From contig CBDDCD010000003.1 in the NCBI GenBank assembly GCA_965226025.1, positions 985,227-1,049,226 of the forward strand: a DNA stretch of 64,000 nt, read 5' to 3'. Under the pieces are notes generated by a model, which ran no database searches, was not told the origin of the DNA, and saw nothing but the letters and a program-made list of their open reading frames with translations. Below, piece by piece: positions 1,577-64,000 of this stretch (within the stretch, counting starts at the first letter, position 1; every line of letters starts with the position of its first letter). Both the position numbers and the translations under genes were made by a program. The DNA is from Candidatus Moanibacter sp. (GTDB lineage Bacteria; Verrucomicrobiota; Verrucomicrobiia; Opitutales; UBA2987).

Positions 1577-3415
1577 CTGGTAAACTAGAGGCTGTCCCAA
1601 ATCCGAGAGGATTTGGGTGGAAGCCTGATACCGATATCAATCTTCGTCACGTTATGTAGACCACGACATGCCTTCCGTCCTCGGTAGCTTACCTTTTATC
1701 CGTTATGCACCTTTCCAGCACCCTTCCTCTCGCTTTGAGTCGATAGTTCTCCCAAGGAAGCGCCTCTGACTCGATTCTTGGATCCCTATGCCGCCTGCGT
1801 TGCCTCTTTCTCATGTTCTTGCGCAAGTCTCTGCGCGATTTTCCATAGATTGTGGGACAGAACCGACCAGGCCACGCTAAGGTTACGGTTGTCAAAGCCT
1901 TTGCTGCGTATCTTGCCCCCGTGCCATCGGTTCTTGAGCACTCCGATCCGGCCTTCGGTGCTCCCTCGTCGTCGCTGCAACCGGACAAAGCGCGGCTCCT
2001 CCATCCGCTCCTTGAGCTCTTGTGGATTGCGGGGCGTAAGGGCGTCAAAAATCCCCTCTGCCTGGAGCCGCTTGCTGGCCGCCTTCGAGGCATAGCCCCG
2101 ATCCCCACTGATCGCTTCGATCTTCTCCTCTAAAGCGAAGCCCTTTTGCCTCTCCAGACTTTCCCAAAGCTGCTTCAATTCGCTCGGGGCCTGCCCCCCA
2201 TACAGTTTCCAGTCCAACAGATATCCCTCTGCGCTCTCGCATAAATAAAGGGTGTTGCCAAACTCCACCTCCCGATCTGCCTTGCCTCGCACGATGACGT
2301 CAATCTCAGGTTCGTAGGCGCTCAGGATCTTCTCCTCATTCTTCACCTGCCGCCCCCCTATGATCCGTTCGTGCGCCTGTTTCATGACCTGCGGTATCTG
2401 CTCTAACATACCATCCATTCGCTCGATGATTCGGCTCGCCTTCTTCTCGGTGTAATCGCTTTGCATCCACATAGCTTCCAATAAGTCACGGTGGCGAAGG
2501 GCATGGCCCTCAATCTTCTTGAGCAATAGCTTCATCCGCCGCAGGATCCCTTTACGCGCTTTGCCCGCCTCCCGGCGCCGACGCGCATGCGTCATCTCCA
2601 GGCACCGTTTGTTCATCTCCCGAGCCAATCCCTTTGCTCCCTGGGGCATGCGCTGTTTCATTCCCGCCTGCCGGATCAGACTGATCGCCTTGAGCAGCGT
2701 TGCTCCCACATCCTTGAGCAAGACCCAGTCCACGGGCCAGTGGATGTTCGCTTCCAGGCAAGTGGCGTCGATCAGGCATTCCCTCGTATCGATCGGCTTC
2801 TCTAATCCTGCCTCACCACAATGTTCAGCATTGCCCACCACCTCGGTCATCCTTGCATGCAGCTGTCTCAGATACGCTTCGTCGAAGAATTTCGAATCCC
2901 GTTCCAGACTGCTCTTCGATATTTTCCGGATCCCGTCTACCTCACGCACCCGGCAAAAATTAGCCAGAAGCTCACTGCGTGCCAACTCCTGCGACAGACA
3001 ACGAAAGGATATCCCTCCGAGTAAATGACGCACCACCTCCACCCGCAGCGCTTTTATCGCTCTTAGAGCGCGTCGCTCCCGATCCTTCCCTCCCGCTTCA
3101 TCCCATCCTTCCAAGGCTTTTACGATCGCCTCCCTTTCCAGCGAGGAGTCGATCAAAACCCGGTCAATCCGCTCCATTGTTTCCAGAAACACGGTGTAGT
3201 CTTTGCATCGAATGACTGGAGTTAGGGCTGGACGCAGGAAGCTTTGTACGGCAATATTTTTCATGAGAAGGGCGTGCTTTGTATTTGACTAACGCAAGCA
3301 TAAGCGCCCTTTTTCGCCGGATCGAGCTTTTTGCAGCTCTATCCGGCCTTTTTTTTGCCCATAACTCATTAAAAATCAATTGTTTCCACCACTGGGACGG
3401 GCTCTAAACTACCAG
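1577..3415 (-). mobile_element. IS5/IS1182-superfamily insertion sequence (~1.84 kb) with imperfect 23-bp terminal inverted repeats
   Basis: Left end CTGGTAAACTAGAGGCTGTCCCA (1577..1599). Reverse complement of right end (3393..3415) is CTGGTAGTTTAGAGCCCGTCCCA, 18/23 identical. Encloses a single DDE transposase ORF. No clear target-site duplication seen. Confidence 0.65.
1786..3264 (-). CDS. DDE transposase, IS4/IS5/IS1182-like
   Basis: 492-aa ORF with candidate catalytic triad contexts LIDATCLEANIHWPVD (D), AISGDRGYASK (D), RRRGSTEGRIGVLKNRW (E). Basic helical mid-region typical of these transposases. Confidence 0.85.
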   Translation of the reverse strand: MKNIAVQSFLRPALTPVIRCKDYTVFLETMERIDRVLIDSSLEREAIVKALEGWDEAGGKDRERRALRAIKALRVEVVRHLLGGISFRCLSQELARSELLANFCRVREVDGIRKISKSSLERDSKFFDEAYLRQLHARMTEVVGNAEHCGEAGLEKPIDTRECLIDATCLEANIHWPVDWVLLKDVGATLLKAISLIRQAGMKQRMPQGAKGLAREMNKRCLEMTHARRRREAGKARKGILRRMKLLLKKIEGHALRHRDLLEAMWMQSDYTEKKASRIIERMDGMLEQIPQVMKQAHERIIGGRQVKNEEKILSAYEPEIDVIVRGKADREVEFGNTLYLCESAEGYLLDWKLYGGQAPSELKQLWESLERQKGFALEEKIEAISGDRGYASKAASKRLQAEGIFDALTPRNPQELKERMEEPRFVRLQRRRGSTEGRIGVLKNRWHGGKIRSKGFDNRNLSVAWSVLSHNLWKIAQRLAQEHEKEATQAA

Positions 3416-15788: not shown

Positions 15789-15950
15789 TTCAGAGTGTCG
15801 CCCGAAGTGTGACAGAGAGTGAGACAGTATGTCAGAAATGGCGCATCAGAGTCAGCCTCCATCTAGTCGATTCAGATTCTTAAGATTTTGGTCTCAAGCG
15901 ACTTGTGGGGGTTGTGTCTCACCTGGCACGCTCTCTGCTTAACGCTGGGC

Positions 15951-17912
15951 GTGAGTAAAGTAATCGGAATCGACCTGGGAACCACCAATTCGTGCATGGC
16001 CGTAATGGAAGGGGGGGAACCGGTCGTGATTCCCAATTCGGAAGGGGCGAGAACGACCCCTTCGGTGGTGGCGTTCGGAAAGAACGGCGAACGTCTCGTC
16101 GGGCAGTCTGCAAAGAGGCAGGCCGTCACTAATCCGGAGAATACCATTTTTTCGGCAAAGCGGTTGATTGGAAGAAAGCACGAAGAGGTGCAGGAGGAGG
16201 CGAAGCATCTCCCTTACAAGATCGGGAAAGGGAAGAATGGCGACGCCTGTATTGAATGTGAGGCCGAGGGCAAGACCGAACAATATACGCCGGAGCAGAT
16301 CTCGTCAATGATATTGGCGAAACTGAAGGCGGATGCGGAGACTTATCTGGGCGAAAAAGTGACCGAGGCCGTGATCACGGTTCCAGCCTATTTCAACGAC
16401 GCTCAGCGCCAGGCCACCAAAGACGCGGGCACCATTGCCGGTCTCGACGTCAAAAGGATCATCAATGAACCCACCGCCGCCTCGCTCGCCTATGGCTTGG
16501 ACAAAAAGAGCGATGAGGTAATCGCGGTCTACGATCTCGGCGGCGGCACCTACGATATTTCCATTCTCGAAATTGGTGACGGCGTCTTTGAAGTCAAAGC
16601 GACCCATGGGGATACCCATTTGGGGGGAGATAACTGGGATGCCACCATAATCGATTGGCTGGTCGAGGAATTTAAGGGTGACAGCGGGATCGATCTGAAG
16701 CAGGACCCGATGGCTCTGCAGCGTCTTAAAGAAGAGGCCGAAAAGGCCAAGATCGCCCTCTCTTCGACGCAGCAAACAGATATCAATCTGCCCTTTATCA
16801 CGGCCGATGCGAGCGGGCCTAAGCATCTAAATGTGAATCTGACTCGGGCAAAGCTGGAGCAACTCTGTGATCGTCTCTTTGAGCGTACTGTGGCTCCATT
16901 TCGAACCTGTCTCGAAGATGCGGAGTTGAGTGCGGGAGATATTCACGAGCTCGTCATGGTGGGAGGGATGACCCGCAGTCCGAAGATCCATGATGTCGCC
17001 AAAGGGCTGGCAGGAAAAGAACCTCACAAGGGAGTGAATCCCGACGAAGTGGTTGCGGTGGGCGCCGCCATTCAGGGTGCCGTCTTACAGGGCGACGTGG
17101 ACTCCGTCCTGCTTCTCGATGTCACGCCGCTCACCCTGAGCATTGAGACCGAAGGGGGCATCTCGAATCCTATGATCGAACGGAACACGACCATTCCAAC
17201 GAAAAAGGCGCAGATCTACTCCACCGCCTCGGACAGCCAACCCAGCGTGGACATTCGCATCCTCCAGGGAGAGCGTCCCATGGCCAGAGATAACAAGGTG
17301 CTGGGTAACTTTCGCCTCGACGGAATCTCGCCGGCTCCGCGGGGTGTGCCTCAGATCGAGGTGACCTATGATATTGACGCCAACGGAATACTTCAGGTCA
17401 CGGCCAAAGACATGGGGACGGGACGCGATCAAAAGATCTCCATTACAGGTTCATCGGGGTTGAGCCAGGAAGAGATTGACAAGATGCGCGAAGAGGCCGA
17501 ATCGCATGCCGCCGAAGACAGCAAGCTGAAGGGGGAAGTCGAGACTCGCAACAAACTGGACACCCTCATCTACCAGACCGAAAAGCTGATTAAAGAGAAC
17601 GGGGATAAGATTCCTGACGACAAAAAGAGCGCTATCGAGGAGTTGATCACGGAGGCCCGTAAAGCGGTCGAATCGAATAATGTTGAACAGATGAATGCGG
17701 CCTTGGAGAAACTCCAGAACGACAAGACGCTCCAGGAAGCGGTAACGGAGATGTATGCCCAGGCCCAGGCAGAGGCCGGCGCTCCACCCGAGGAGGCTGC
17801 ATCCGGTTCCACACCTCCTCCCGAAACGGCTACCGGCTCGAGTGGAAATGCAGCCGACGAAAGTGTGGTCGATGCCGATTTTGAAATGGTCGACGACGAG
17901 AAAGAGAAGTGA
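15951..17912 (+). CDS. dnaK: Molecular chaperone DnaK (Hsp70)
   Basis: ORF 15888..17912. The canonical N-terminus (M)[13 protein letters not shown] starts at GTG 15951. Also shows [20 protein letters not shown] and an acidic C-terminal tail. Confidence 0.95.
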
Positions 17913-17992
17913 ATTTATCTCGGAGGCGAGGCCGCTTGTGCGGTGAAACTCTCCCCGGGAAAGTGATTACCCAAATTGAACGAATCTCACAA

Positions 17993-18059
17993 GAAATCTG
18001 TCGGAGAAGCTTTGGCACTTGTAGAGCAATCGAATGACAAAGTTCGACAGACTCCTAGC
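17993..18059 (-). repeat. Dispersed inverted-repeat element, short form
   Basis: GAAATCTGTCGGAGAAGCTTTGGCACTTGTAGAGCAATCGAATGACAAAGTTCGACAGACTCCTAGC. Lies between dnaK and groES. Confidence 0.85.
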
Positions 18060-18096
18060 TTGAGATAGATTAACCCAAAAAAAGGAAGAAGCACGT

Positions 18097-18390
18097 ATGA
18101 AACCTAAGATCAAACCTCTCGGAGACCGCGTTTTGATATCGGCGGTCGAAGAAGATGAGCAAGTTAAGGGCGGAATCATCATTCCCGATACGGCCAAGGA
18201 AAAGCCTCAAGAAGCTGAGGTTATTGCTTTGGGAACGGGAAAGACAGATGACAATGGAAAGGTCATCAAATTCGCCGTAAAAGTTGGAGATCGAGTGATC
18301 GTCAGCAAGTATGGAGGTACCGAAGTCAAATTTGACGATCGGGAATACTCTCTGGTACGCGAGGACGATATCCTCGGAATAATCGGTTAA
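18097..18390 (+). CDS. groES: Co-chaperonin GroES
   Basis: 97-aa [13 protein letters not shown]...[22 protein letters not shown]...[14 protein letters not shown]. Confidence 0.95.
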
Positions 18391-20055
<1,665 letters not shown>

Positions 20056-56849: not shown

Positions 56850-58334
56850 TCAGCGATCCGGAAGCGAGAATTCCCTATCGCCGTTGTTGTAGTAGACATG
56901 ATTGGAACCATCCGCACAGTTCAGCACGAGATCGGGAATACCATCCTCATCGATGTCGTCGATCCCAGCCGCCTGTATTCCGGAGGACGATCCCGCCAGC
57001 CGGTGGACGTCGTCTGCTGGAAATCGTGAACCGGCGTTAAAAAATACGGCTGCATCACTTCCGGTGGCGCCGATTAGAAGGTCCGTCAAGCCATCGAAAT
57101 CGAAGTCATAGGGATAGATGAAATCGGGTTTTCGACTCTCTTGAACCAGGCCCGTTTCGATCGGCGTCTCCGTTTCCAGAAATACGAGGTGTTGACCGGT
57201 TGTCCTTCCCCGGGCGTTAAGGAGGATTTTCAAAGAACCGTTGGGGTTGCCGTTGTAGAGAACGAGGTCGGGTTGGTTATCGGAATTGACATGGACAACG
57301 GCGACGAACCCGGACTCCCGCACTTGCTGACCGGGAAAAACATCGCGTGACAGAGGTTCTGGTGAAGAATTTAGTTGCATCGCGCTCAACGCCATTCCGT
57401 CGGAATCGGCCAGATTATTCTCGAAGGCCCACCACTGTGCCATCCCGTCAGGACGTCCAACCGCGACGATGAGATCGAGATCGCCATCCAAGTCGAGGTC
57501 CGAAGAAGTGATGTGATGCCAAGGCTGTCGCGTTGGATCCGGCCACGCCCTCTTTGGAAGTGCCTGAAAGATCGACGAAGAGACTTCCACACCCCCATCC
57601 TCAACATTTTCAGGGCCAACGGAGACGACCGCTGAGCCACGAAGTATCTCCTCCTTTTCTGGGATCTTAGCGATAGGACCGAGACTATTTCTCTGCGCCT
57701 GTTTCTTCGGGTAGAAAGAGGGAACCTGAGCGATGGAGGAAATAGAAAATTGCGGCGGGAGACTCTTCCGAGACGTTTCGGGCTTTGTGACGGTCGGAAC
57801 GATGATTCCGAATTCGATTCCCTCTTGGGCATGTTCGCCGCAGCCGAAATAGATCAGCCGATCAAAGTTCTCTTTGATCAAAATGGTAACGATGCGGGTG
57901 TTTCCGTAAAATGTCTTCGTAGTAAGGGCCTCCCGGTCAAAGAGACGATTTGAGAGGCGTTCGAGTTTGTGCTCGTTGGGCGGCAGTTCGAAATTGCGAT
58001 CTACTTCAACCCGTCGGCCGAGTTCCGATTCATCGGGTCGGGTGACATAGAAAAACACACTGTGGGTTCCCCCGGTCTGTCGGAACTCGATCGAATCGCC
58101 TTCAACGGCCGGGATACGTACCACTCCCCGGGACTCGCCTCGGCCCGAGTGTTTACCTCGATAGTGCCAGGTTTCATTCGATGCGGTAACTATGTGGCGA
58201 TGGGAAGTACCGGGTTGCGAAGTTTGGTTTGCGTTTAGGGAGAGAGGGATGAATTGAAGCAAAATCGTCAGGCATGAAATCAAACATCCAAGTTGGGATC
58301 GGCCTGCTCCCGAATTCTGAAACCAACTATGCAT
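56850..58334 (-). CDS. Secreted cupredoxin-like domain fused to FG-GAP/VCBS beta-propeller repeats
   Basis: 494-aa ORF. Signal peptide. N-domain (about 57795..58202) with candidate type-1 Cu ligands GGTH91SVFF and YFGC165GEH168AQEGI. C-half has four DxDxDGxxDL-type repeats (SSDLDLDGDLDLIVA, NSDNQPDLVLYN, DFDFDGLTDLLIG, DIDEDGIPDLVLN). Confidence 0.65.
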   Translation of the reverse strand: MHSWFQNSGAGRSQLGCLISCLTILLQFIPLSLNANQTSQPGTSHRHIVTASNETWHYRGKHSGRGESRGVVRIPAVEGDSIEFRQTGGTHSVFFYVTRPDESELGRRVEVDRNFELPPNEHKLERLSNRLFDREALTTKTFYGNTRIVTILIKENFDRLIYFGCGEHAQEGIEFGIIVPTVTKPETSRKSLPPQFSISSIAQVPSFYPKKQAQRNSLGPIAKIPEKEEILRGSAVVSVGPENVEDGGVEVSSSIFQALPKRAWPDPTRQPWHHITSSDLDLDGDLDLIVAVGRPDGMAQWWAFENNLADSDGMALSAMQLNSSPEPLSRDVFPGQQVRESGFVAVVHVNSDNQPDLVLYNGNPNGSLKILLNARGRTTGQHLVFLETETPIETGLVQESRKPDFIYPYDFDFDGLTDLLIGATGSDAAVFFNAGSRFPADDVHRLAGSSSGIQAAGIDDIDEDGIPDLVLNCADGSNHVYYNNGDREFSLPDR

Positions 58335-59614
58335 TATCTCGACGAAAGTGGAAGAATGCTGTCGTTTCCTTTAGGAAGAATAGAAAAGAGTCCCCACTCG
58401 CCGCCTTCGAGATGTTCTCCGACATGACAACCATAGAGGTATTGCTGTTCCGAATTCACATTCGGCTGGGGGCGCAATCGGAGGTTGAAAGTGGCGGTTG
58501 AGGCGAGAGCGATGGCCGAAATTCGGTTGGAGGACTCGCTTTGAAAATCGAAGGGCCATCTCTGGCCATCGATGAAAAAGGAATGCTCCGCGGCGGTGCC
58601 TTCTCCCACCGCATGGATGAGACGAATGAGGATGCGATCTTCCTCGAGGACCATTATTTTCGGAGTTGGCGGTTGATCTTTTTCGCCGGCGGCCGAGAAG
58701 AGGTTGATTGCATTCAGTCTCTGGTTTGACCACCCGGAGTGAGTAAAAATTGCGAACTCCCGGAAGGACTCTTTTGGATCGTCCTCTAAGAGGATGCGGG
58801 CCGACCATCCCGGCTGTGCGTCACTCTGGAGAGAGGAGGACTCGCTCGATTCAAATCGGGCCCCCGGAGGTTCTACGATTAGGGCGCCGAAGAGTCCAAA
58901 TCGTTGGTGAGTGGGGTCGGCCATATCCCTCAGGTAACAGGCGCCTAACTCCCGATTCACCGACCAGTGGTAGTCTCTCGAGTCACCTCTGAGAATGATC
59001 GATGGATCATTGAGTCCGATCGCCGCTCCATCTGAGGAGGTCACGTCATAACTGACGAGGCCGGCATGAATCGCCGTAGTCGATGTCCAGGACGTCCCAA
59101 AACGATCGGGATTGGGGTCGTTCAAAGGTATCTCAGGGAGGAGATTAGATAACCGAAGGCAGACCAGAACAGGTTTATTCGTACCATCGGTGGCTTTCTT
59201 ACCGGCAGCGACACGCAGGACGAGGGGATGCGGATCGGCTGCGAAGCGCGGCCGCAATTCGCCGAGTAGATCCCCAATCCTCAATTCGATTTCCTGACCC
59301 AAAAGGAACGCTTTCTCTGTTTCATTTCGACCGAGCGCCCTTCCTTTTTCCCTGGTCAGCTTCGTAATTTCGTTTGCCGCGGCCTGGTCCTGCCGGTTCT
59401 TGAGCTCAAGATAGACTAGGGCCGGAACATCGCCTACTGCGGAGGAGCGGGAGGGAACGGTGACCTCGAGGGCGGCGATGTGGAAGCAGACCACCTTCCC
59501 TTTTGGGCCGCTGCCGGCTGGGGGCGGGATGCAGACGCTTTTGCAGCCGCTGACGAGACCGAGCAGGGAGAGAAGGAGAGTGGCTCTCAGTGTCAGCTTT
59601 TCAATGGTCGTCAT
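58334..59614 (-). CDS. Lipoprotein, multicopper-oxidase-like paralogue of the C-terminal module of the upstream giant protein
   Basis: 426-aa ORF. Lipobox LVSGC24. AIHAGLVSYDVTSSDGAAIGLN and HQRFGLFGALIVEP align with GMHTHLVQYDVQSSDGAVAGLN and PHGLFAATIVEP of the giant protein. C-terminal YGCHVGEHLEGGEWGLFSI (58391..58432) is HCHxxxH-like. The stop shares one nt with the next ATG (TAATG). Confidence 0.65.
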   Translation of the reverse strand: MTTIEKLTLRATLLLSLLGLVSGCKSVCIPPPAGSGPKGKVVCFHIAALEVTVPSRSSAVGDVPALVYLELKNRQDQAAANEITKLTREKGRALGRNETEKAFLLGQEIELRIGDLLGELRPRFAADPHPLVLRVAAGKKATDGTNKPVLVCLRLSNLLPEIPLNDPNPDRFGTSWTSTTAIHAGLVSYDVTSSDGAAIGLNDPSIILRGDSRDYHWSVNRELGACYLRDMADPTHQRFGLFGALIVEPPGARFESSESSSLQSDAQPGWSARILLEDDPKESFREFAIFTHSGWSNQRLNAINLFSAAGEKDQPPTPKIMVLEEDRILIRLIHAVGEGTAAEHSFFIDGQRWPFDFQSESSNRISAIALASTATFNLRLRPQPNVNSEQQYLYGCHVGEHLEGGEWGLFSILPKGNDSILPLSSR

Positions 59615-62600
59615 TTTCCAGAAGTTGCTGTTTGAGTGATGTCCGTTGACTGCAAATCCTGCAGCGGTGTAAGACCTCCGACGAATCTCTCCTTACTTGC
59701 CATTTCAAGTATAGTCGGCTCATCACCGTCTTCGGTTTCAAATTCAATTCCATCAAGTTCGGTAGCAAAAAGCATGTTCGCGGGGATATTCCCCTGATCG
59801 CCTCGAATCTCCGCAACGAGAGGGATTTCAAAGAACAATGCAGGCGGATCAAATCGCCTCGCAACGTTGTTCTCTATTGTCTCCGAATCCACTGAAGTCG
59901 TCTCGCGGGTGAGAAATCGGACGCCGGAAGCGGAAGTGAAAAGATGACCCTTGGAGACGTTAACGTTGGAGGGCGCGTCGATGAATATTCGAATCGTGCC
60001 GTTTGCCCGGGAGTCGGCGTCGGTAGTGTCGGTTTCCGGTTGAATGCGCAACAGACCCCACTTCCCCCGTTCGATCAGATCGTCTTCGCTTGGATCGGAG
60101 TAGAGGTAGTCTCCCTCTGGCGCCCGGACCATGGGATCGGTCGTGAAGCTGAATGCTTCCGATACTCCCGCGAGCACGAAATCACGAAATGTAGAGTTTG
60201 GGTTGTTGTGTTCATAGCGCCAGCGATGTCCGTGCAGATTCAGGGTGTGAATCTCGTCGGGTCCACTACCCTCGACTCGAATTCTTATGGGATCACCCTC
60301 AAACGCTCGCCAGATCGGGGTTACAGGATCCCCGTGGAGTATCGAACTGAAGCGCATTTCGTTACCTCCAAGGATCTGTGGTCGCCCCGCTCTATCCCAC
60401 CTCACATCGAAAGGTGTAGTGCGAGCTTTGAGCGGTTTCTCCCGCCGGACGAGGGGCTCACTTCGCAGGTTGATCGATTTACGGTTTCTCCTGCCATCGT
60501 TGAAGAGCGGCACGACTTCGCGAAAAGAGGATTTACCGCCGCCATTCACCCCGATCCTAATGTCAGCCAAAGCCAGACCATTTCGACTTGAGGTCCTGCT
60601 GATAATATCCTCGGAGTTTCGAATGTAGAGCTGGCTGCCGGTTTGAGGATCGTGGTAGGTGGAGTCACGCGGTTCGACAATGGTAGCCGCAAAAAGCCCG
60701 TGGGGAAGGCTGTCTTTGAGTAGCGAATGATCATGCCAGTAGACAGTTCCCAATTCAACGTCGCACCACCAGCGATAGTGGACCTGCTCGTCATGGGTCT
60801 GCGCTTCGTCGATCGGAATAAAACGCTCTTCATTCCGGTCCCATCGCAAGGAAGGTCGAATCGATGTCTCGTAGTTCAACCCAGCGACCGCACCATCGGA
60901 TGATTGCACGTCGTACTGAACCAGGTGGGTGTGCATACCAACCTTGCTCAGAAATTCATTCTCGGTTGTATCAACCAGGGCGCTTGTCAAAGTGATATCT
61001 ACGACATCGCCCGTATTGGCGCGGATGACCAGCGGCTCCGCCCTCTTGCGACCGGCGAAAATGTCCTTTGCGTCATCGCGGAGCACGAAGATCTGGCCTC
61101 GCGGGTCGATGAAATCCGGCTCCGGGGCCCGGGGGGGCGGGCTGAGCGCCAGGCGGCCTCTCATCTGCACTCCGTCTCCGCCATGAACTTTGCAGAGGAA
61201 ATCGATCGATTCGGATTCAGAGATACCCACTTTGACGATGGCGCTGGCGAGAAGGGTCCCGGGCCCAAAACCGGTGGTGCCGAATGCACCGGTCCCGAAA
61301 CCACCAAAATTGGGGTCGTCTTCGAGGGGTTGACCGACTGCGGGGTCGAAATCGAGGATGCTTTCTGTAGTCGCTCGGTCGGAAAAGACCAATCCGTGAA
61401 AGCCTCCTTCCACTTTCCATGAGATCGAGTCACCGGGACGGATCACACTGTCGGTGGGATTGACGGCGGGTTCTTGAGGAACGCCGTCGACTCGGAGATG
61501 CCAGTTTTCTGTGTCGCTGGCGATGGCGAAGAATTCAAAGGAAGTTTCCGCATCCGGTTCGGTGGTGTCCAGAACCACCAGGCGGGCATTCATTCCGGCG
61601 GGGCCGTGGACGCGGCAAGTAAAGTCGACGATTCTTTGAGGGGTACCTAGAGGATCTGACTTGACCGAGGCACGGGCGAGGATGGTGGGCGCTGGAAAAC
61701 CGCCGGTGCCGAATGCTTCCGCTCCAAAGTTGCCGAAATTGGGAAGATCGTCGAGAGACTCGCCGACCGTCTGGTCGAATAAAAGGATGGATTCGGCTGT
61801 GGTCCGATTCGCAAAGACCAAGCCGTGAATATTCGCCTCGACCTTCCAGATAATTGTGTCTCCTGGAAGGACTGCAATTTCGTCCGTATTCTGCCCAATG
61901 CCATCAATTCGTATCTGCCACGCGTCCGTGTTCGGCCCTCCGATGATTTCAACGAGCCGGGGACCAGGCACCGGTCCCGGTGGGTCGGGCGAATCCGGCT
62001 GGTCTGGGAGTGTTCCAAAAGATCCTGAAATACGGGCGCCATTGTGAGTCGAGTAGTTGATCGGGAGTTCGACCGCGACGATGTCGTAGTGTCTCACCTT
62101 CGACGGTTCTGAATCGGCCTCTTCAGGAGCCAGACCGCTCCCGAAGGGAACGCCGAGTGGTTCCAGTTGAGGGCCGACGCGACCCGGATCGTTCCTCCCA
62201 AAGGTGGGACCCAGGTATGCTGTTCCTTGGACCTTCGCATCTTCCTGGAGAAGCCATTGCTCGTCGGTGCTGTTTGGAGGAGAGAGTCGGTGTTTGGGAG
62301 CAAATGGAGGGCGTCGTCCGGCATGGGGGAGGAGGAAGGGGTAGGCGAGGCGGCCGTCGATCGGATTGAAAAGAAGGCGAGGGGCTTCAAGTTCCTCTCT
62401 CTCCCCATCGACTTCAACGAAATCCATCCTGTTTGCCCCGACACCTTCACCGACGGTTGGGAACCCCAGACCGAAATCAACCAGACTGTGAGGAAGGGAA
62501 TCGGCGCCCGCGGCAGAAGGCTCGCCTAGGTAGAGCCGCCCTTCGGACAGATCGAGGGCATCCCACGGCCACAGGTCGGCACGATTGATCAGGGAATTGG

Positions 62601-64000
62601 CGGAAACCGGAGAACGGGAATCGAGTTCTTCGAGATCGGGATCCCCTCGGCGGGGCAGCTGAGAATCGATGAATGGATACAGTTCGTTTTCGATCTCCTC
62701 AAGACGCCTACCCGCGAAAGCTCCGGTAACCGGAATCGGTCCCTGGCCGCTTTCGACGAGCTGGGCAAGAGTGATAGAATCGACTGCCTGTGGGGGACGA
62801 AATCCAGCGCTGAGCCGATCGGGGAGGGGTGCGAGGCCGGGACGAAAAGAGGTTCGCGTCTGAAGGGTATTGAAAATCCGGGCATAGGTCCACATCCCGC
62901 GTACGACATGGTCGATGATGTGGCAGTGAAAGAGTACGTCGCCGACCGTGCGCTGTACTCCGCCCGCTCCGCCTTCCATGAAGACGTCGAAAGTCTCGGC
63001 CGGGCCGAGCGTTTGGGAGTCGACACGAGTCGAGATTGATTCGGTCAGATCGGGTTGGGCGGCAAATTCCGGGAGGCCGAGTTTCGACGGACGCGTCAGG
63101 TTCGCTTTTTCTTTTGGGGCGCCAGTCTCCGTGACTCCATTCTGGAAACGCCAGCGGTGGGCGTGATGGTGAAAAACATGAAACTGGTCACCGGTGCCTC
63201 CGTGGACGATGCGATACCGCATGGGATCTCCCACGTAGAATCTCGGATGAGGAGTGGATGAATCACCGTAGGTGTAGGCGCTGTAAGCCATCGAGTGGTC
63301 GTTGACGGCGAAGGGGCGCTTACCCTCGAGGCGGGGTCGTGTGTCGGCAATTTCCCGCTCGAGAATGTCCGCGAAGGGTTCGGTCCGGTAGTTGAGGGCC
63401 CTGGGATCAACTTCGATGAGTCCTTCGACTTTTCCCCCAAGGTCGTCGTGGAAGAAGATCACATATTCGCGGTAGGCAGGAATGTCGGGATCCTTGTTGT
63501 CGATGATCGCGCCCCATCCGCTTCGGATCGTTTTGTAACTCTCTTCGGCAATACGGTAATCGCCGAAGCCGTCGTCGTCTGAAATCTCGAAGGCTTCCGT
63601 ATCATAGTAGATCGAACCCTTCGGCTCGACGATGAGGGCGCCGAATAGCCCGTGTGCAATTTGGGTTCGAGTTCGCCTCAATCCATGGGCGGTGTCGCTC
63701 GGTAGAACCGGCTGACTGTGAAAGTAGTAGGTTCCTTCGCTTTCCGGATTCGCTCCGATGGTCAGGATGTAACGCAGATGGTAGTTAGAAGCATTCGGAT
63801 GAGGGAAGGGGGCGGATTCCTCGGTCCCATTGAGTGCGTGAAAATCATAGGGGACGCCGTGGAGAGTTAGATTCGCGCGATGGTCGGTTCCGTCTTCGCC
63901 CCCAGGAACCGTGAGTCGATTGGTGAAGTCGATGACGACTGTGTCCCCTACGTTGGCTCGGATCACCAGAGGTTCAGAGGTCAGAACCGGCACCCGTTTT
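59611..64000 (-). CDS. Giant multi-cupredoxin multicopper-oxidase-like protein (>1460 aa; N-terminus lies beyond the right edge)
   Basis: Frame is open to position 64000. Canonical MCO motifs HVFHHHAHRW (63151..63180) and HCHIIDHVVRGM (62893..62928). Two tandem plastocyanin-like domains with CRVHGPAGM (61591..61617) and CKVHGGDGVQM (61162..61194). A second MCO-like module with GMHTHLVQYD (HTH at 60925..60933), YWHDHS and HTLNLHGHRW. The stop overlaps the next ATG (ATGA at 59611..59614). Confidence 0.8.
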   Translation of the reverse strand, partial: KRVPVLTSEPLVIRANVGDTVVIDFTNRLTVPGGEDGTDHRANLTLHGVPYDFHALNGTEESAPFPHPNASNYHLRYILTIGANPESEGTYYFHSQPVLPSDTAHGLRRTRTQIAHGLFGALIVEPKGSIYYDTEAFEISDDDGFGDYRIAEESYKTIRSGWGAIIDNKDPDIPAYREYVIFFHDDLGGKVEGLIEVDPRALNYRTEPFADILEREIADTRPRLEGKRPFAVNDHSMAYSAYTYGDSSTPHPRFYVGDPMRYRIVHGGTGDQFHVFHHHAHRWRFQNGVTETGAPKEKANLTRPSKLGLPEFAAQPDLTESISTRVDSQTLGPAETFDVFMEGGAGGVQRTVGDVLFHCHIIDHVVRGMWTYARIFNTLQTRTSFRPGLAPLPDRLSAGFRPPQAVDSITLAQLVESGQGPIPVTGAFAGRRLEEIENELYPFIDSQLPRRGDPDLEELDSRSPVSANSLINRADLWPWDALDLSEGRLYLGEPSAAGADSLPHSLVDFGLGFPTVGEGVGANRMDFVEVDGEREELEAPRLLFNPIDGRLAYPFLLPHAGRRPPFAPKHRLSPPNSTDEQWLLQEDAKVQGTAYLGPTFGRNDPGRVGPQLEPLGVPFGSGLAPEEADSEPSKVRHYDIVAVELPINYSTHNGARISGSFGTLPDQPDSPDPPGPVPGPRLVEIIGGPNTDAWQIRIDGIGQNTDEIAVLPGDTIIWKVEANIHGLVFANRTTAESILLFDQTVGESLDDLPNFGNFGAEAFGTGGFPAPTILARASVKSDPLGTPQRIVDFTCRVHGPAGMNARLVVLDTTEPDAETSFEFFAIASDTENWHLRVDGVPQEPAVNPTDSVIRPGDSISWKVEGGFHGLVFSDRATTESILDFDPAVGQPLEDDPNFGGFGTGAFGTTGFGPGTLLASAIVKVGISESESIDFLCKVHGGDGVQMRGRLALSPPPRAPEPDFIDPRGQIFVLRDDAKDIFAGRKRAEPLVIRANTGDVVDITLTSALVDTTENEFLSKVGMHTHLVQYDVQSSDGAVAGLNYETSIRPSLRWDRNEERFIPIDEAQTHDEQVHYRWWCDVELGTVYWHDHSLLKDSLPHGLFAATIVEPRDSTYHDPQTGSQLYIRNSEDIISRTSSRNGLALADIRIGVNGGGKSSFREVVPLFNDGRRNRKSINLRSEPLVRREKPLKARTTPFDVRWDRAGRPQILGGNEMRFSSILHGDPVTPIWRAFEGDPIRIRVEGSGPDEIHTLNLHGHRWRYEHNNPNSTFRDFVLAGVSEAFSFTTDPMVRAPEGDYLYSDPSEDDLIERGKWGLLRIQPETDTTDADSRANGTIRIFIDAPSNVNVSKGHLFTSASGVRFLTRETTSVDSETIENNVARRFDPPALFFEIPLVAEIRGDQGNIPANMLFATELDGIEFETEDGDEPTILEMASKERFVGGLTPLQDLQSTDITQTATSGK

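Follow-up and report, generated by a model that had tools for sequence, protein, structure and literature searches.

Genes and domains at the locus

The window, the whole stretch of 64,000 nucleotides that was analysed, ends within a gene for a giant multicopper oxidase of the verrucomicrobial bacterium Candidatus Moanibacter sp.; two genes follow on the same strand, one for a predicted lipoprotein and one for a secreted protein with FG-GAP repeats (Table 1). The full giant protein (P0001) comprises 1643 amino acids, of which the window contains residues 182-1643, equivalent to residues 357-1818 of the intact form P0125. The TGA of the giant gene overlaps the ATG of the lipoprotein gene (ATGA, 59611-59614), and the stop codon of the latter shares one base with the start of the FG-GAP gene (TAATG). 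Judged from these overlaps, the three genes appear to be coupled, with translation of the lipoprotein coupled to that of the giant gene. The neighbors of the oxidase are a 163-residue N-terminal fragment, the lipoprotein and the FG-GAP protein. Cupredoxin domains are abundant across the operon, and the FG-GAP protein too has a cupredoxin-like domain at its N-terminus (GGTHSVFF...YFGCGEH). Its gene comes after the oxidase gene both in lineages with a split oxidase and in those in which the oxidase is a single, fused polypeptide.

The locus encodes six cupredoxin domains in three two-domain modules, modules 1 and 2 in the giant protein and module 3 in the lipoprotein; the six domains do not all reside on one polypeptide here. 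Pfam alone barely detects them. The two plastocyanin-like domains inserted in the giant chain are 49% identical to one another and both have the full His / Cys-x-x-His / Met ligands (IHGLVF...FTCRVHGPAGM and FHGLVF...FLCKVHGGDGVQM); a PF00127 match on relative P0003 backs their assignment. The homology given for the tail domain is based on the alignment of residues 1034-1630 of the giant protein with residues 1014-1615 of the fused relative P0006.

The giant protein matches MnxG in the PDB (9bxa_A, 4.8e-89) and the NCBIfam MnxG profile (4e-36), with a score of 123.4 bits against the cutoff of 3100 for the MnxG equivalog NF041487. It is thus a distant member of the MnxG family and not an equivalog of Pseudomonas MnxG. 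A search of the available literature found no paper on the 9bxa structure, and the study of Romano et al. (2017) holds nothing on the domain layout.

Table 1. Features of the oxidase locus in window coordinates
Feature	Position	Strand	Remark
Giant multicopper oxidase gene	59611..64000	-	runs past the window end
Module 1 (cupredoxin domains 1-2)	62623..63999	-	
Domain 2 H455-x-x-H458-x-H460	63163..63180	-	type 1 His and two cluster His
Domain 2 H539-C540-H541-x3-H545-x4-M550 (HCHIIDHVVRGM)	62893..62928	-	
Two tandem plastocyanin-like domains	61123..61905	-	between modules 1 and 2
Module 2 (cupredoxin domains 3-4)	60013..61122	-	
Domain 3 H1204-T-H1206	60925..60933	-	two cluster His
Domain 3 H1270-D-H1272	60727..60735	-	two cluster His
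Domain 4 HTLNLHGH	60226..60249	-	vestigial
Domain 4 YLYSDPSEDDLIERGKWG	60055..60108	-	where HCHxxxHxxxxM would be
C-terminal tail domain of the giant protein	59614..60012	-	homologous to the module 2-3 linker of fused relatives
Detached module 3 (domains 5-6), predicted lipoprotein, 426 aa	58334..59614	-	
Module 3 signal peptide and lipobox (LVSG-C24)	59543..59614	-	
Domain 6 H344	58583-58585	-	
Domain 6 C396-H397-x3-H401-x4-E406	58397..58429	-	
Third operon gene, secreted protein with FG-GAP repeats	56850..58334	-	

Copper ligands of the giant chain

In domain 1 the ligand motifs are degenerate (LTLHGV, YYFHSQ). The first motif of domain 2, H455-x-x-H458-x-H460, is invariant in 95/95 relatives, and so is the second, which provides the type 1 Cys, His and Met together with two cluster His. 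The two His pairs of domain 3 are equally conserved: H1270-D-H1272 is found in all 96 relatives and H1204-T-H1206 in 95 of the 96, the remaining row being a gap. By these motifs the type 1 copper site consists of H455, C540, H545 and M550, all in domain 2, and the trinuclear cluster of H458, H460, H539 and H541 from domain 2 plus H1204, H1206, H1270 and H1272 from domain 3. By sequence, the giant chain accordingly holds a complete ligand set, 12/12 positions, and contains the sole complete catalytic set of the locus. This domain 2/3 layout of the active site has already been published for bacterial six-domain oxidases (Vasin et al. 2013, PMC3600357).

The preliminary description of this DNA had credited module 2 with three intact motifs of the trinuclear type, GMHTHL, YWHDHS and HTLNLHGH (residues 1202, 1268 and 1432 of the giant protein). 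The first two are indeed intact. In the third, the second His is replaced by Asn, and only the final Gly-His is conserved across 96 relatives (Gly in 95, His in 90), so that HTLNLHGH does not qualify as an intact motif by its sequence. Further downstream, domain 4 reads YLYSDPSEDDLIERGKWG (residue 1479); a Cys at this position occurs in 0/96 relatives and is likewise absent from Bacillus MnxG (YLWAFEDEEDVWLGTWG).

Origin of the lipoprotein and of its ligand residues

The lipoprotein contains AIHAGL at residue 181, YLRDMAD at residue 227, IHAVGEGTAAEH with H344, and GCHVGEHLEGGEW with C396, H397, H401 and E406; these strings and those quoted for the giant protein were all found in the translations where they had been placed previously. 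Five of the 12 ligand positions are kept (H183, H344, C396, H397 and H401), and the other seven are occupied by G, R, M, F, D, G and E. Since the HxH, HxH, HxxHxH and HCHxxxHxxxxM sets are incomplete, the lipoprotein was rejected as a two-domain oxidase of the SLAC type. When the lipoprotein (LYGCHVGEHLEGGEW) is aligned with module 1 (LFHCHIIDHVVRGMW), its Cys, the adjacent His and the His at +5 fall in register, and a Glu stands at the position of the axial Met, as had been proposed. H344, C396 and H401 lie where a type 1 copper site has its His/Cys/His. The N-terminus MTTIEKLTLRATLLLSLLGLVSGC comprises an n-region, an h-region and a lipobox-like VSGC; inspection by eye finds the lipobox pattern [LVI][ASTVI][GAS]C in MTTIEKLTLRATLLLSLLGL-VSG-C24. 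In the alignment the fused relatives have no counterpart of this signal peptide, and module 3 therefore seems to have acquired it along with the lipobox.

Residues 44-421 of the lipoprotein align with the C-terminal module of fused relatives of 2050-2550 residues at 31-39% identity (E 4e-37 to 4e-72), and in every fused relative this module is the best match. A module 3 profile matches residues 874-1215 of Bacillus MnxG 9bxa_A with an E value of 3.4e-69; it also matches two-domain oxidases, at 4e-08 to 1e-03. Modules 1, 2 and 3 follow one another in this order on a single chain in 94 of 118 relatives, residues 61-1630 of the giant protein are collinear with residues 214-1615 of the fused proteins, and all three modules map collinearly onto the fused relatives and 9bxa_A. 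The AlphaFold model of module 3 is of medium confidence (pLDDT 69.8, pTM 0.71), with the Cys-His loop (398-404) at a pLDDT <50; its top Foldseek match is 9bxa_A (E 4.8e-17), and factor VIII chains are also among the matches. These comparisons identify the lipoprotein as an orthologue of domains 5-6, the third module in an old family of proteins with three modules. Two further proteins were considered. P0124 was rejected as an orthologue of the lipoprotein, being part of a common protein with three modules, and P0123, a candidate third split orthologue, is closest to module 3 of the fused P0003 (57% identity). A contig scan based on the module 3 alignment, in which the back-translated GLFGALIVEP served as a generic pattern, gave chiefly MnxG-like loci of the ordinary kind; the genome of the window was missing from them, and L002 alone was informative.

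These relationships bear on the earlier proposal that module 2 and the lipoprotein arose by duplication, degenerated in reciprocal fashion and today pair up in a heteromer that combines the His pairs of module 2 with the Cys/His/His cluster of the lipoprotein. In its favor, the motif strings match their description, the two genes lie side by side and are coupled, both split lineages keep the Cys/His/His cluster, and the two polypeptides are detectable paralogues: residues 135-415 of the lipoprotein align with residues 1161-1503 of the giant protein at 24.7% identity (E 3.5e-12), which points to a significant but weak paralogy. However, the ligand census of the relatives disclosed no paired His motifs in domain 5, and the missing domain 4 Cys and the missing domain 5 His pairs are family-wide and older than the split; the pattern was described for bacterial six-domain oxidases by Vasin et al. 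(2013, PMC3600357). The supposed complementarity is also incomplete, as two of the eight cluster His and the axial Met are missing even when module 2 and the lipoprotein are combined. Moreover, the HxH and HDH pairs of module 2 have a complete, invariant partner on the same chain, domain 2 of module 1. Domain 3 would face domain 2 and domain 6 would face domain 1 in the ring geometry (PMC3600357), so that the half-sites would not lie at one interface. Finally, the orthologue comparison that had been suggested as a check already contradicts the proposal, since the Cys is replaced by Ser or Ala in P0003-P0010 and P0123, the closest fused orthologues included. Reciprocal degeneration with shared sites is therefore highly improbable, and the mismatched motifs that gave rise to it are the ordinary published pattern of the enzyme family.

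Among these proteins, only the two split lineages retain the domain 6 Cys/His/His cluster. In a neighbor-joining tree without bootstrap, it is equally parsimonious that the Cys reverted from Ser and that it was retained from an ancestor with HCH (as in P0011-P0017). The two split lineages keep both the Cys of domain 6 and the Cys-x-x-His in the cupredoxin domain of the FG-GAP partner, and four fused ones have lost both; in the fused P0007 lineage the partner Cys is kept and the domain 6 Cys is lost, and this discordance leaves no clean correlation between the two. One additional mononuclear copper may sit at the His/Cys/His trio of the split lineage; the trio is not needed to complete the module 2 site. 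The lipoprotein could instead be an independent small copper protein, an electron carrier or copper chaperone with an H344/C396/H401 (Glu406) site, that acts outside the ring. It has its own export signal, keeps the three type 1 ligand positions in both split lineages and is encoded in an operon rich in cupredoxin domains. Yet the invariant residues that split and fused forms of module 3 have in common are structural ones (GLFGALIVEP, GGEWG, NLLP), with neither the Cys nor the +5 His among them. In 9bxa and the single-chain relatives the ring has module 3 as one of its three integral parts, and the two-domain size with retained interface-type motifs favors docking. We regard an independent role as unlikely. 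The non-catalytic scaffold offered as an alternative in the preliminary description suits the lipoprotein.

The split oxidase and its relatives

Fused relatives are about 400 residues longer than the giant chain. In a second split lineage (L083), the giant gene encodes 1844 residues and is followed by a 124-nt spacer, a 442-residue module 3 and then the FG-GAP gene; its module 3 also has a hydrophobic N-terminus, in which the lipobox is not conserved (FGLRC). In the window genome, an in-frame TGA located 576 nt past the end of the window (L001 4127-4129) separates a 163-residue N-terminus that bears the signal peptide from the giant protein; this codon is TGG in sibling assemblies, and in other siblings the giant gene is interrupted elsewhere by frameshifts. 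The TGA and the interruptions in the siblings suggest that the enzyme may be non-functional in the window genome. The same defects could be taken to mean that the split itself reflects a decaying or mis-assembled gene, with the lipoprotein frame being the tail of a broken oxidase gene. Against this, the same break point, the spacer and a new hydrophobic N-terminus recur in the L083 lineage, which is only 56-61% identical, the module 3 frame is intact at 426 residues on six contigs of the window's species, and a lipobox signal peptide has been added. A broken gene is a very unlikely explanation, and the fission between the giant gene and module 3 is, to judge from these sequences, real and conserved.

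Taken together, the locus likely encodes a verrucomicrobial multicopper oxidase of the MnxG type with six cupredoxin domains, whose ancestral single gene was split such that the giant gene retains modules 1 and 2 and the next gene specifies module 3. The lipoprotein and the giant chain probably form a heteromer, since the former is a part split off from one and the same ring; in this sense the predicted association stands, but not as a sharing of sites. Electrons would enter at the type 1 site of domain 2, perhaps via the fused plastocyanin-like domains and the cupredoxin/FG-GAP partner, and would pass over the Cys-His bridge to the cluster, where O2 would be reduced to water. Module 3, exported separately, would bind to domains 4 and 1, complete the pseudo-threefold ring in the way in which domains 5-6 complete it in single-chain MnxG, and anchor the enzyme to a membrane. 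The ligand-like residues of domains 1, 4, 5 and 6 are vestiges of ancestral sites. In a more elaborate version, the 4+2 split is functional and not neutral: the lipid-anchored domains 5-6, with their type 1-like His/Cys/His and the Glu in the axial register, would form a relay with the FG-GAP cupredoxin and the inserts into the domain 2 site and the domain 2/3 cluster. We consider this version rather improbable; if true, fission would permit modular assembly at the membrane.

The unusual point is the conserved natural fission into a four-domain chain and a two-domain chain predicted to be membrane-tethered. We know of no description of such a fission for MnxG-type enzymes. Six-domain oxidases are thought to derive from trimers of two-domain units, and the locus resembles a living intermediate that runs in the reverse direction. 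It could be used to test the assembly of the ring and the contribution of domains 5-6. For annotation, a lone "degenerate two-domain oxidase" beside a giant oxidase may be a detached module and not a new protein family.

Among the closest known systems are Bacillus sp. PL-12 MnxG, from the Mnx complex (PDB 9bxa), and the bacterial MnxG-like six-domain oxidases (PMC3600357). They share with the locus the three two-domain modules, the type 1 site in domain 2 with cluster ligands from domains 2 and 3, a domain 4 without Cys (YLW...GTWG in MnxG, YLY...GKWG here) and the DMAD motif of domain 5 (MWDMADL in MnxG, YLRDMADP here). They differ in that module 3 is here a separate gene with a lipoprotein signal, that the giant chain carries two plastocyanin-like domains and a tail domain as insertions, and that the similarity falls far below the NCBIfam equivalog cutoff. 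The fused oxidases of Gimesia (Planctomyces) maris with 2047 and 2057 residues (P0005, P0006) are collinear with the split proteins (46% identity in modules 1-2, 39% in module 3) and have in common with them the N-terminal MLMMQGMAG...PCC region, the plastocyanin inserts and the downstream FG-GAP gene, but they are single polypeptides with Ser or Ala for the domain 6 Cys. The small laccases of the SLAC type have the same two-cupredoxin size as the lipoprotein; unlike it, they have complete ligand sets and form homotrimers with three clusters. Of the six-domain multicopper blue proteins known from eukaryotes, ceruloplasmin and the coagulation factors VIII and V likewise arrange six cupredoxin domains in a ring, without a close sequence relationship to the locus. 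The cluster of ceruloplasmin lies between domains 1 and 6. Factor VIII consists of two chains held together non-covalently as a heterodimer, a heavy chain of four domains (A1-A2) and a light chain in which the last two-domain unit (A3) is joined to membrane-binding domains. It thus displays the same 4+2 partition with the two-domain piece at the membrane, brought about by proteolysis in factor VIII and by gene fission here.

Identity of the lipoprotein

The range 58334-61041 comprises the lipoprotein ORF and the last third of the giant oxidase ORF, both on the minus strand. P0001 of the protein database is the full-length giant protein; of its 1643 aa, the window encodes aa 182-1643. At its N-terminus the lipoprotein has a signal peptide that includes a lipobox (MTTIEKLTLRATLLLSLLGLVSGC). 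The ORF shares bases with both neighbours: its ATG with the TGA of the giant gene (ATGA), and its stop codon with the ATG of the third gene (TAATG).

Features of the oxidase locus and of other parts of the window
Feature	Position	Strand	Remarks
ISNCY/IS5-family transposase ORF	1786-3264	-	NCBIfam, 1.4e-60
DnaK and GroEL genes	15888-20055	+	within the window
Third gene, FG-GAP protein, 494 aa	56850-58334	-	overlaps lipoprotein stop
Lipoprotein ORF, 426 aa	58334-59614	-	ORF translation
Giant oxidase gene	59611 to beyond 64000	-	ORF running off the window end
Two tandem plastocyanin-like domains	61123-61905	-	between modules 1 and 2 of the giant; complete type 1 ligands
In-frame TGA	L001 4127-4129	-	contig L001; 576 nt beyond window position 64000

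The preliminary description regarded module 2 of the giant protein (domains 3-4) and the lipoprotein as paralogues, and lipoprotein aa 135-415 are indeed detectably paralogous to giant aa 1161-1503 (24.7% identity, E 3.5e-12). When the lipoprotein was compared with 120 relatives of the giant protein, its best match in each was the C-terminal module, not the middle module. Identity to the closest one-chain relatives, P0003-P0010, is 31-39% (E 4e-37 to 4e-72), and the best alignment joins lipoprotein aa 44-421 to aa 1660-2040 of the 2057-aa Gimesia maris protein P0005 (39% identity, E 3.6e-72). Giant aa 61-1630 are collinear with aa 214-1615 of these fused relatives, which are themselves about 400 aa longer, and 94 of 118 relatives have modules 1, 2 and 3 one after another on a single chain. 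Altogether, 1295 relatives of the giant protein were scored; most are 1400-2500 aa long and carry annotations as multicopper or manganese oxidases. NCBIfam relates the giant distantly to MnxG, and among solved structures it matches one alone, MnxG of Bacillus sp. PL-12 (9bxa_A, E 4.8e-89). A profile built from the lipoprotein together with its orthologues matches residues 874-1215 of the same structure (E 3.4e-69), which is also the top structural match (E 4.8e-17) of the AlphaFold model of the lipoprotein (pLDDT 69.8, pTM 0.71); laccases, two-domain oxidases and factor VIII rank next. Based on the C-terminal module matches, the collinearity and the matches of profile and model to 9bxa_A, it is concluded that the lipoprotein is orthologous to domains 5-6 of a six-domain oxidase, split off by gene fission and equipped with an export signal. 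The resemblance to module 2 is that of the old internal repeat of the family. A long helical hairpin inserted in domain 5 (lipoprotein aa 74-126) is confidently predicted (pLDDT 94-97) and is common to the module 3 sequences of the fused PVC-type proteins.

Copper ligands and their arrangement

Each module was aligned across about 95 relatives. Every motif string quoted in the preliminary description is present in the giant and lipoprotein translations.

Copper-ligand motifs by domain (domains 1-4, giant protein; 5-6, lipoprotein)
Domain	Quoted motifs	Ligand positions	State in relatives
1		LTLHGV and YYFHSQ, 2/4 His	distant members HxHG and HSH; P0003-P0009 degenerate as in the window
2		H455-x-x-H458-x-H460 and H539-C540-H541-x3-H545-x4-M550	invariant, 95/95
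3	GMHTHL (aa 1202), YWHDHS (aa 1268)	H1204-T-H1206 and H1270-D-H1272	invariant (95/96, one gap; 96/96)
4	HTLNLHGH (aa 1432), YLYSDPSEDDLIERGKWG (aa 1479)	HTLNLHGH and YLYSDP...	only final Gly-His of first motif conserved (G95, H90)
5	AIHAGL (aa 181), YLRDMAD (aa 227)	H183 only	R/N-D-x-A/G motif widespread; MWDMADL in Bacillus MnxG
6	AAEH344, GC396H397VGEH401LEGGE406W	H344, C396, H397, H401, E406	Cys396 position: Asp 47, Ser 16, Asn 16, Cys 9 of 97

By this census, all 12 canonical ligand positions, as read from the sequence, are on the giant chain, between domains 2 and 3, where the sequence shows a single type 1 site and a single trinuclear cluster. The His pairs of module 2 do not depend on an HCH motif from the lipoprotein; module 1, on the same chain, provides it. 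A set combined from module 2 and the lipoprotein would remain short of the axial Met and two cluster His residues (Asn1435/Phe347 and Ser1482/Gly395). In the published six-domain ring, domain 3 would touch domain 2 and domain 6 would touch domain 1, which argues against the two halves meeting at one interface. Leftover ligand residues persist at the remaining domain interfaces. Reciprocal degeneration after duplication does not account for the pattern because both losses extend across the whole family and long predate the fission: the domain 4 Cys occurs in 0 of 96 relatives, and paired His residues in domain 5 were found in none of the approximately 95 aligned relatives. On the refutation test set in the preliminary description, the Cys/His/His cluster of the lipoprotein is not conserved among orthologues; the domain 6 Cys is limited to the window protein, its split sister P0122/P0140 and the P0011-P0017 subfamily. 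The observation of mismatched ligands was confirmed, but its interpretation was largely wrong. As to the suggested heteromer, the two chains probably associate, because the lipoprotein is the detached third of the giant's ring, but a shared set of copper sites is not borne out. The alternative that the lipoprotein is a non-catalytic scaffold fits.

In the proposed mechanism, electrons from a substrate or partner would enter the type 1 copper of domain 2 and pass to the cluster, where O2 would be reduced. The two plastocyanin-like inserts, 49% identical to one another and each with a complete His / Cys-x-x-His / Met set, may serve as built-in electron shuttles. Module 3 would be exported and lipidated separately and would then close the ring by docking. 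Domain 6 of the split lineage has kept three strong type 1 ligands and might bind an extra copper; this is possible rather than probable because its loop is poorly modelled (residues 398-404, pLDDT <50) and the residues are lost in the fused relatives. At the Cys position the closest fused proteins, P0003-P0010, have Ser or Ala, and so does P0123. A neighbour-joining tree does not tell retention of this Cys from reversion.

The P0011-P0017 proteins are of Acidobacteriota type (1550-1720 aa). Their domain 6 has HxxHxH and HCHxxxHxxxGM motifs of its own, forming another complete set (HHVFHLHGH and HCHIMDHKKMGM), and domain 1 shows HxH and YSH. These motifs suggest that the domain 6/1 interface holds an additional type 1 site and a further trinuclear cluster that is nearly complete.

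Fission, interruptions and neighbouring genes

The gene fission is real. In a second split lineage (contig L083), the giant and module 3 are 61% and 56% identical to those of the window, and 124 nt separate the 1844-aa giant gene from module 3, which has 442 aa and a new hydrophobic N-terminus. The FG-GAP gene comes next, after a further 208 nt. Both giants have the same G-x-TPL stretch just before their C-terminal ends. Module 3 has 426 aa on six contigs of the window's species. When 1.84 billion representatives were searched exhaustively with phmmer, the lipoprotein had 550 relatives. Of the 150 best matches listed, nearly all lie within much longer proteins or are short fragments, and among these 150 a full-length stand-alone form was seen only in the lipoprotein's own 50% cluster. 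P0123, which is nearest to the fused P0003 (57% identity), and a few fragments are at most candidates. GroEL of the window shares 81-94% identity with its top matches, identical sequences set aside, the few named ones belonging to Verrucomicrobiae, Puniceicoccaceae and Opitutaceae. It places the host in Verrucomicrobiota (Opitutales-like), although the closest relative of the oxidase to carry a name is planctomycetal.

Over 9349 nt, contig L001 has the same sequence as the window, and it continues beyond the window's end. Just upstream of the giant gene, and in frame with it, is a 163-aa ORF encoding a signal peptide and a Met/Cys-rich region (MLMMQGMAG...PCC...CC) also found N-terminally in the fused relatives. 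A single TGA separates the two, whereas two sibling assemblies have TGG at this position and encode one 1818-aa protein (P0125, P0128), which would mean either that the giant chain of this strain lacks an export signal or that the base call is wrong. In other sibling assemblies (P0126, P0129-P0132) the giant gene is broken elsewhere, by a frameshift in the first plastocyanin-like domain or a gap between aa ~774 and ~1158, and module 3 is intact. Such interruptions may reflect a recurrent inactivation that the oxidase is undergoing in the species, or errors of assembly; the reading of the motifs is the same in either case.

At each of the six loci examined, whether split or fused, the FG-GAP gene comes after that of the oxidase, and we infer that its product is a conserved partner of the oxidase. 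Its N-terminus is a cupredoxin-like domain (GGTHSVFF...YFGCGEHAQEG) related to the plastocyanin-like inserts, with Cys-x-x-His kept, among these loci, only in the window, L083 and L087. The inserts themselves are common to the PVC-type fused relatives P0003-P0010 and are absent from the shorter P0012 and P0017, whose alignments skip the region.

The arrangement of ligands in domains 2 and 3 of the giant agrees with that described by Vasin et al. 2013 (PMC3600357). The mismatched ligand pattern is the layout already known for MnxG-type oxidases; the genuinely unusual feature is the conserved 4+2 fission with a lipoprotein-type third module.
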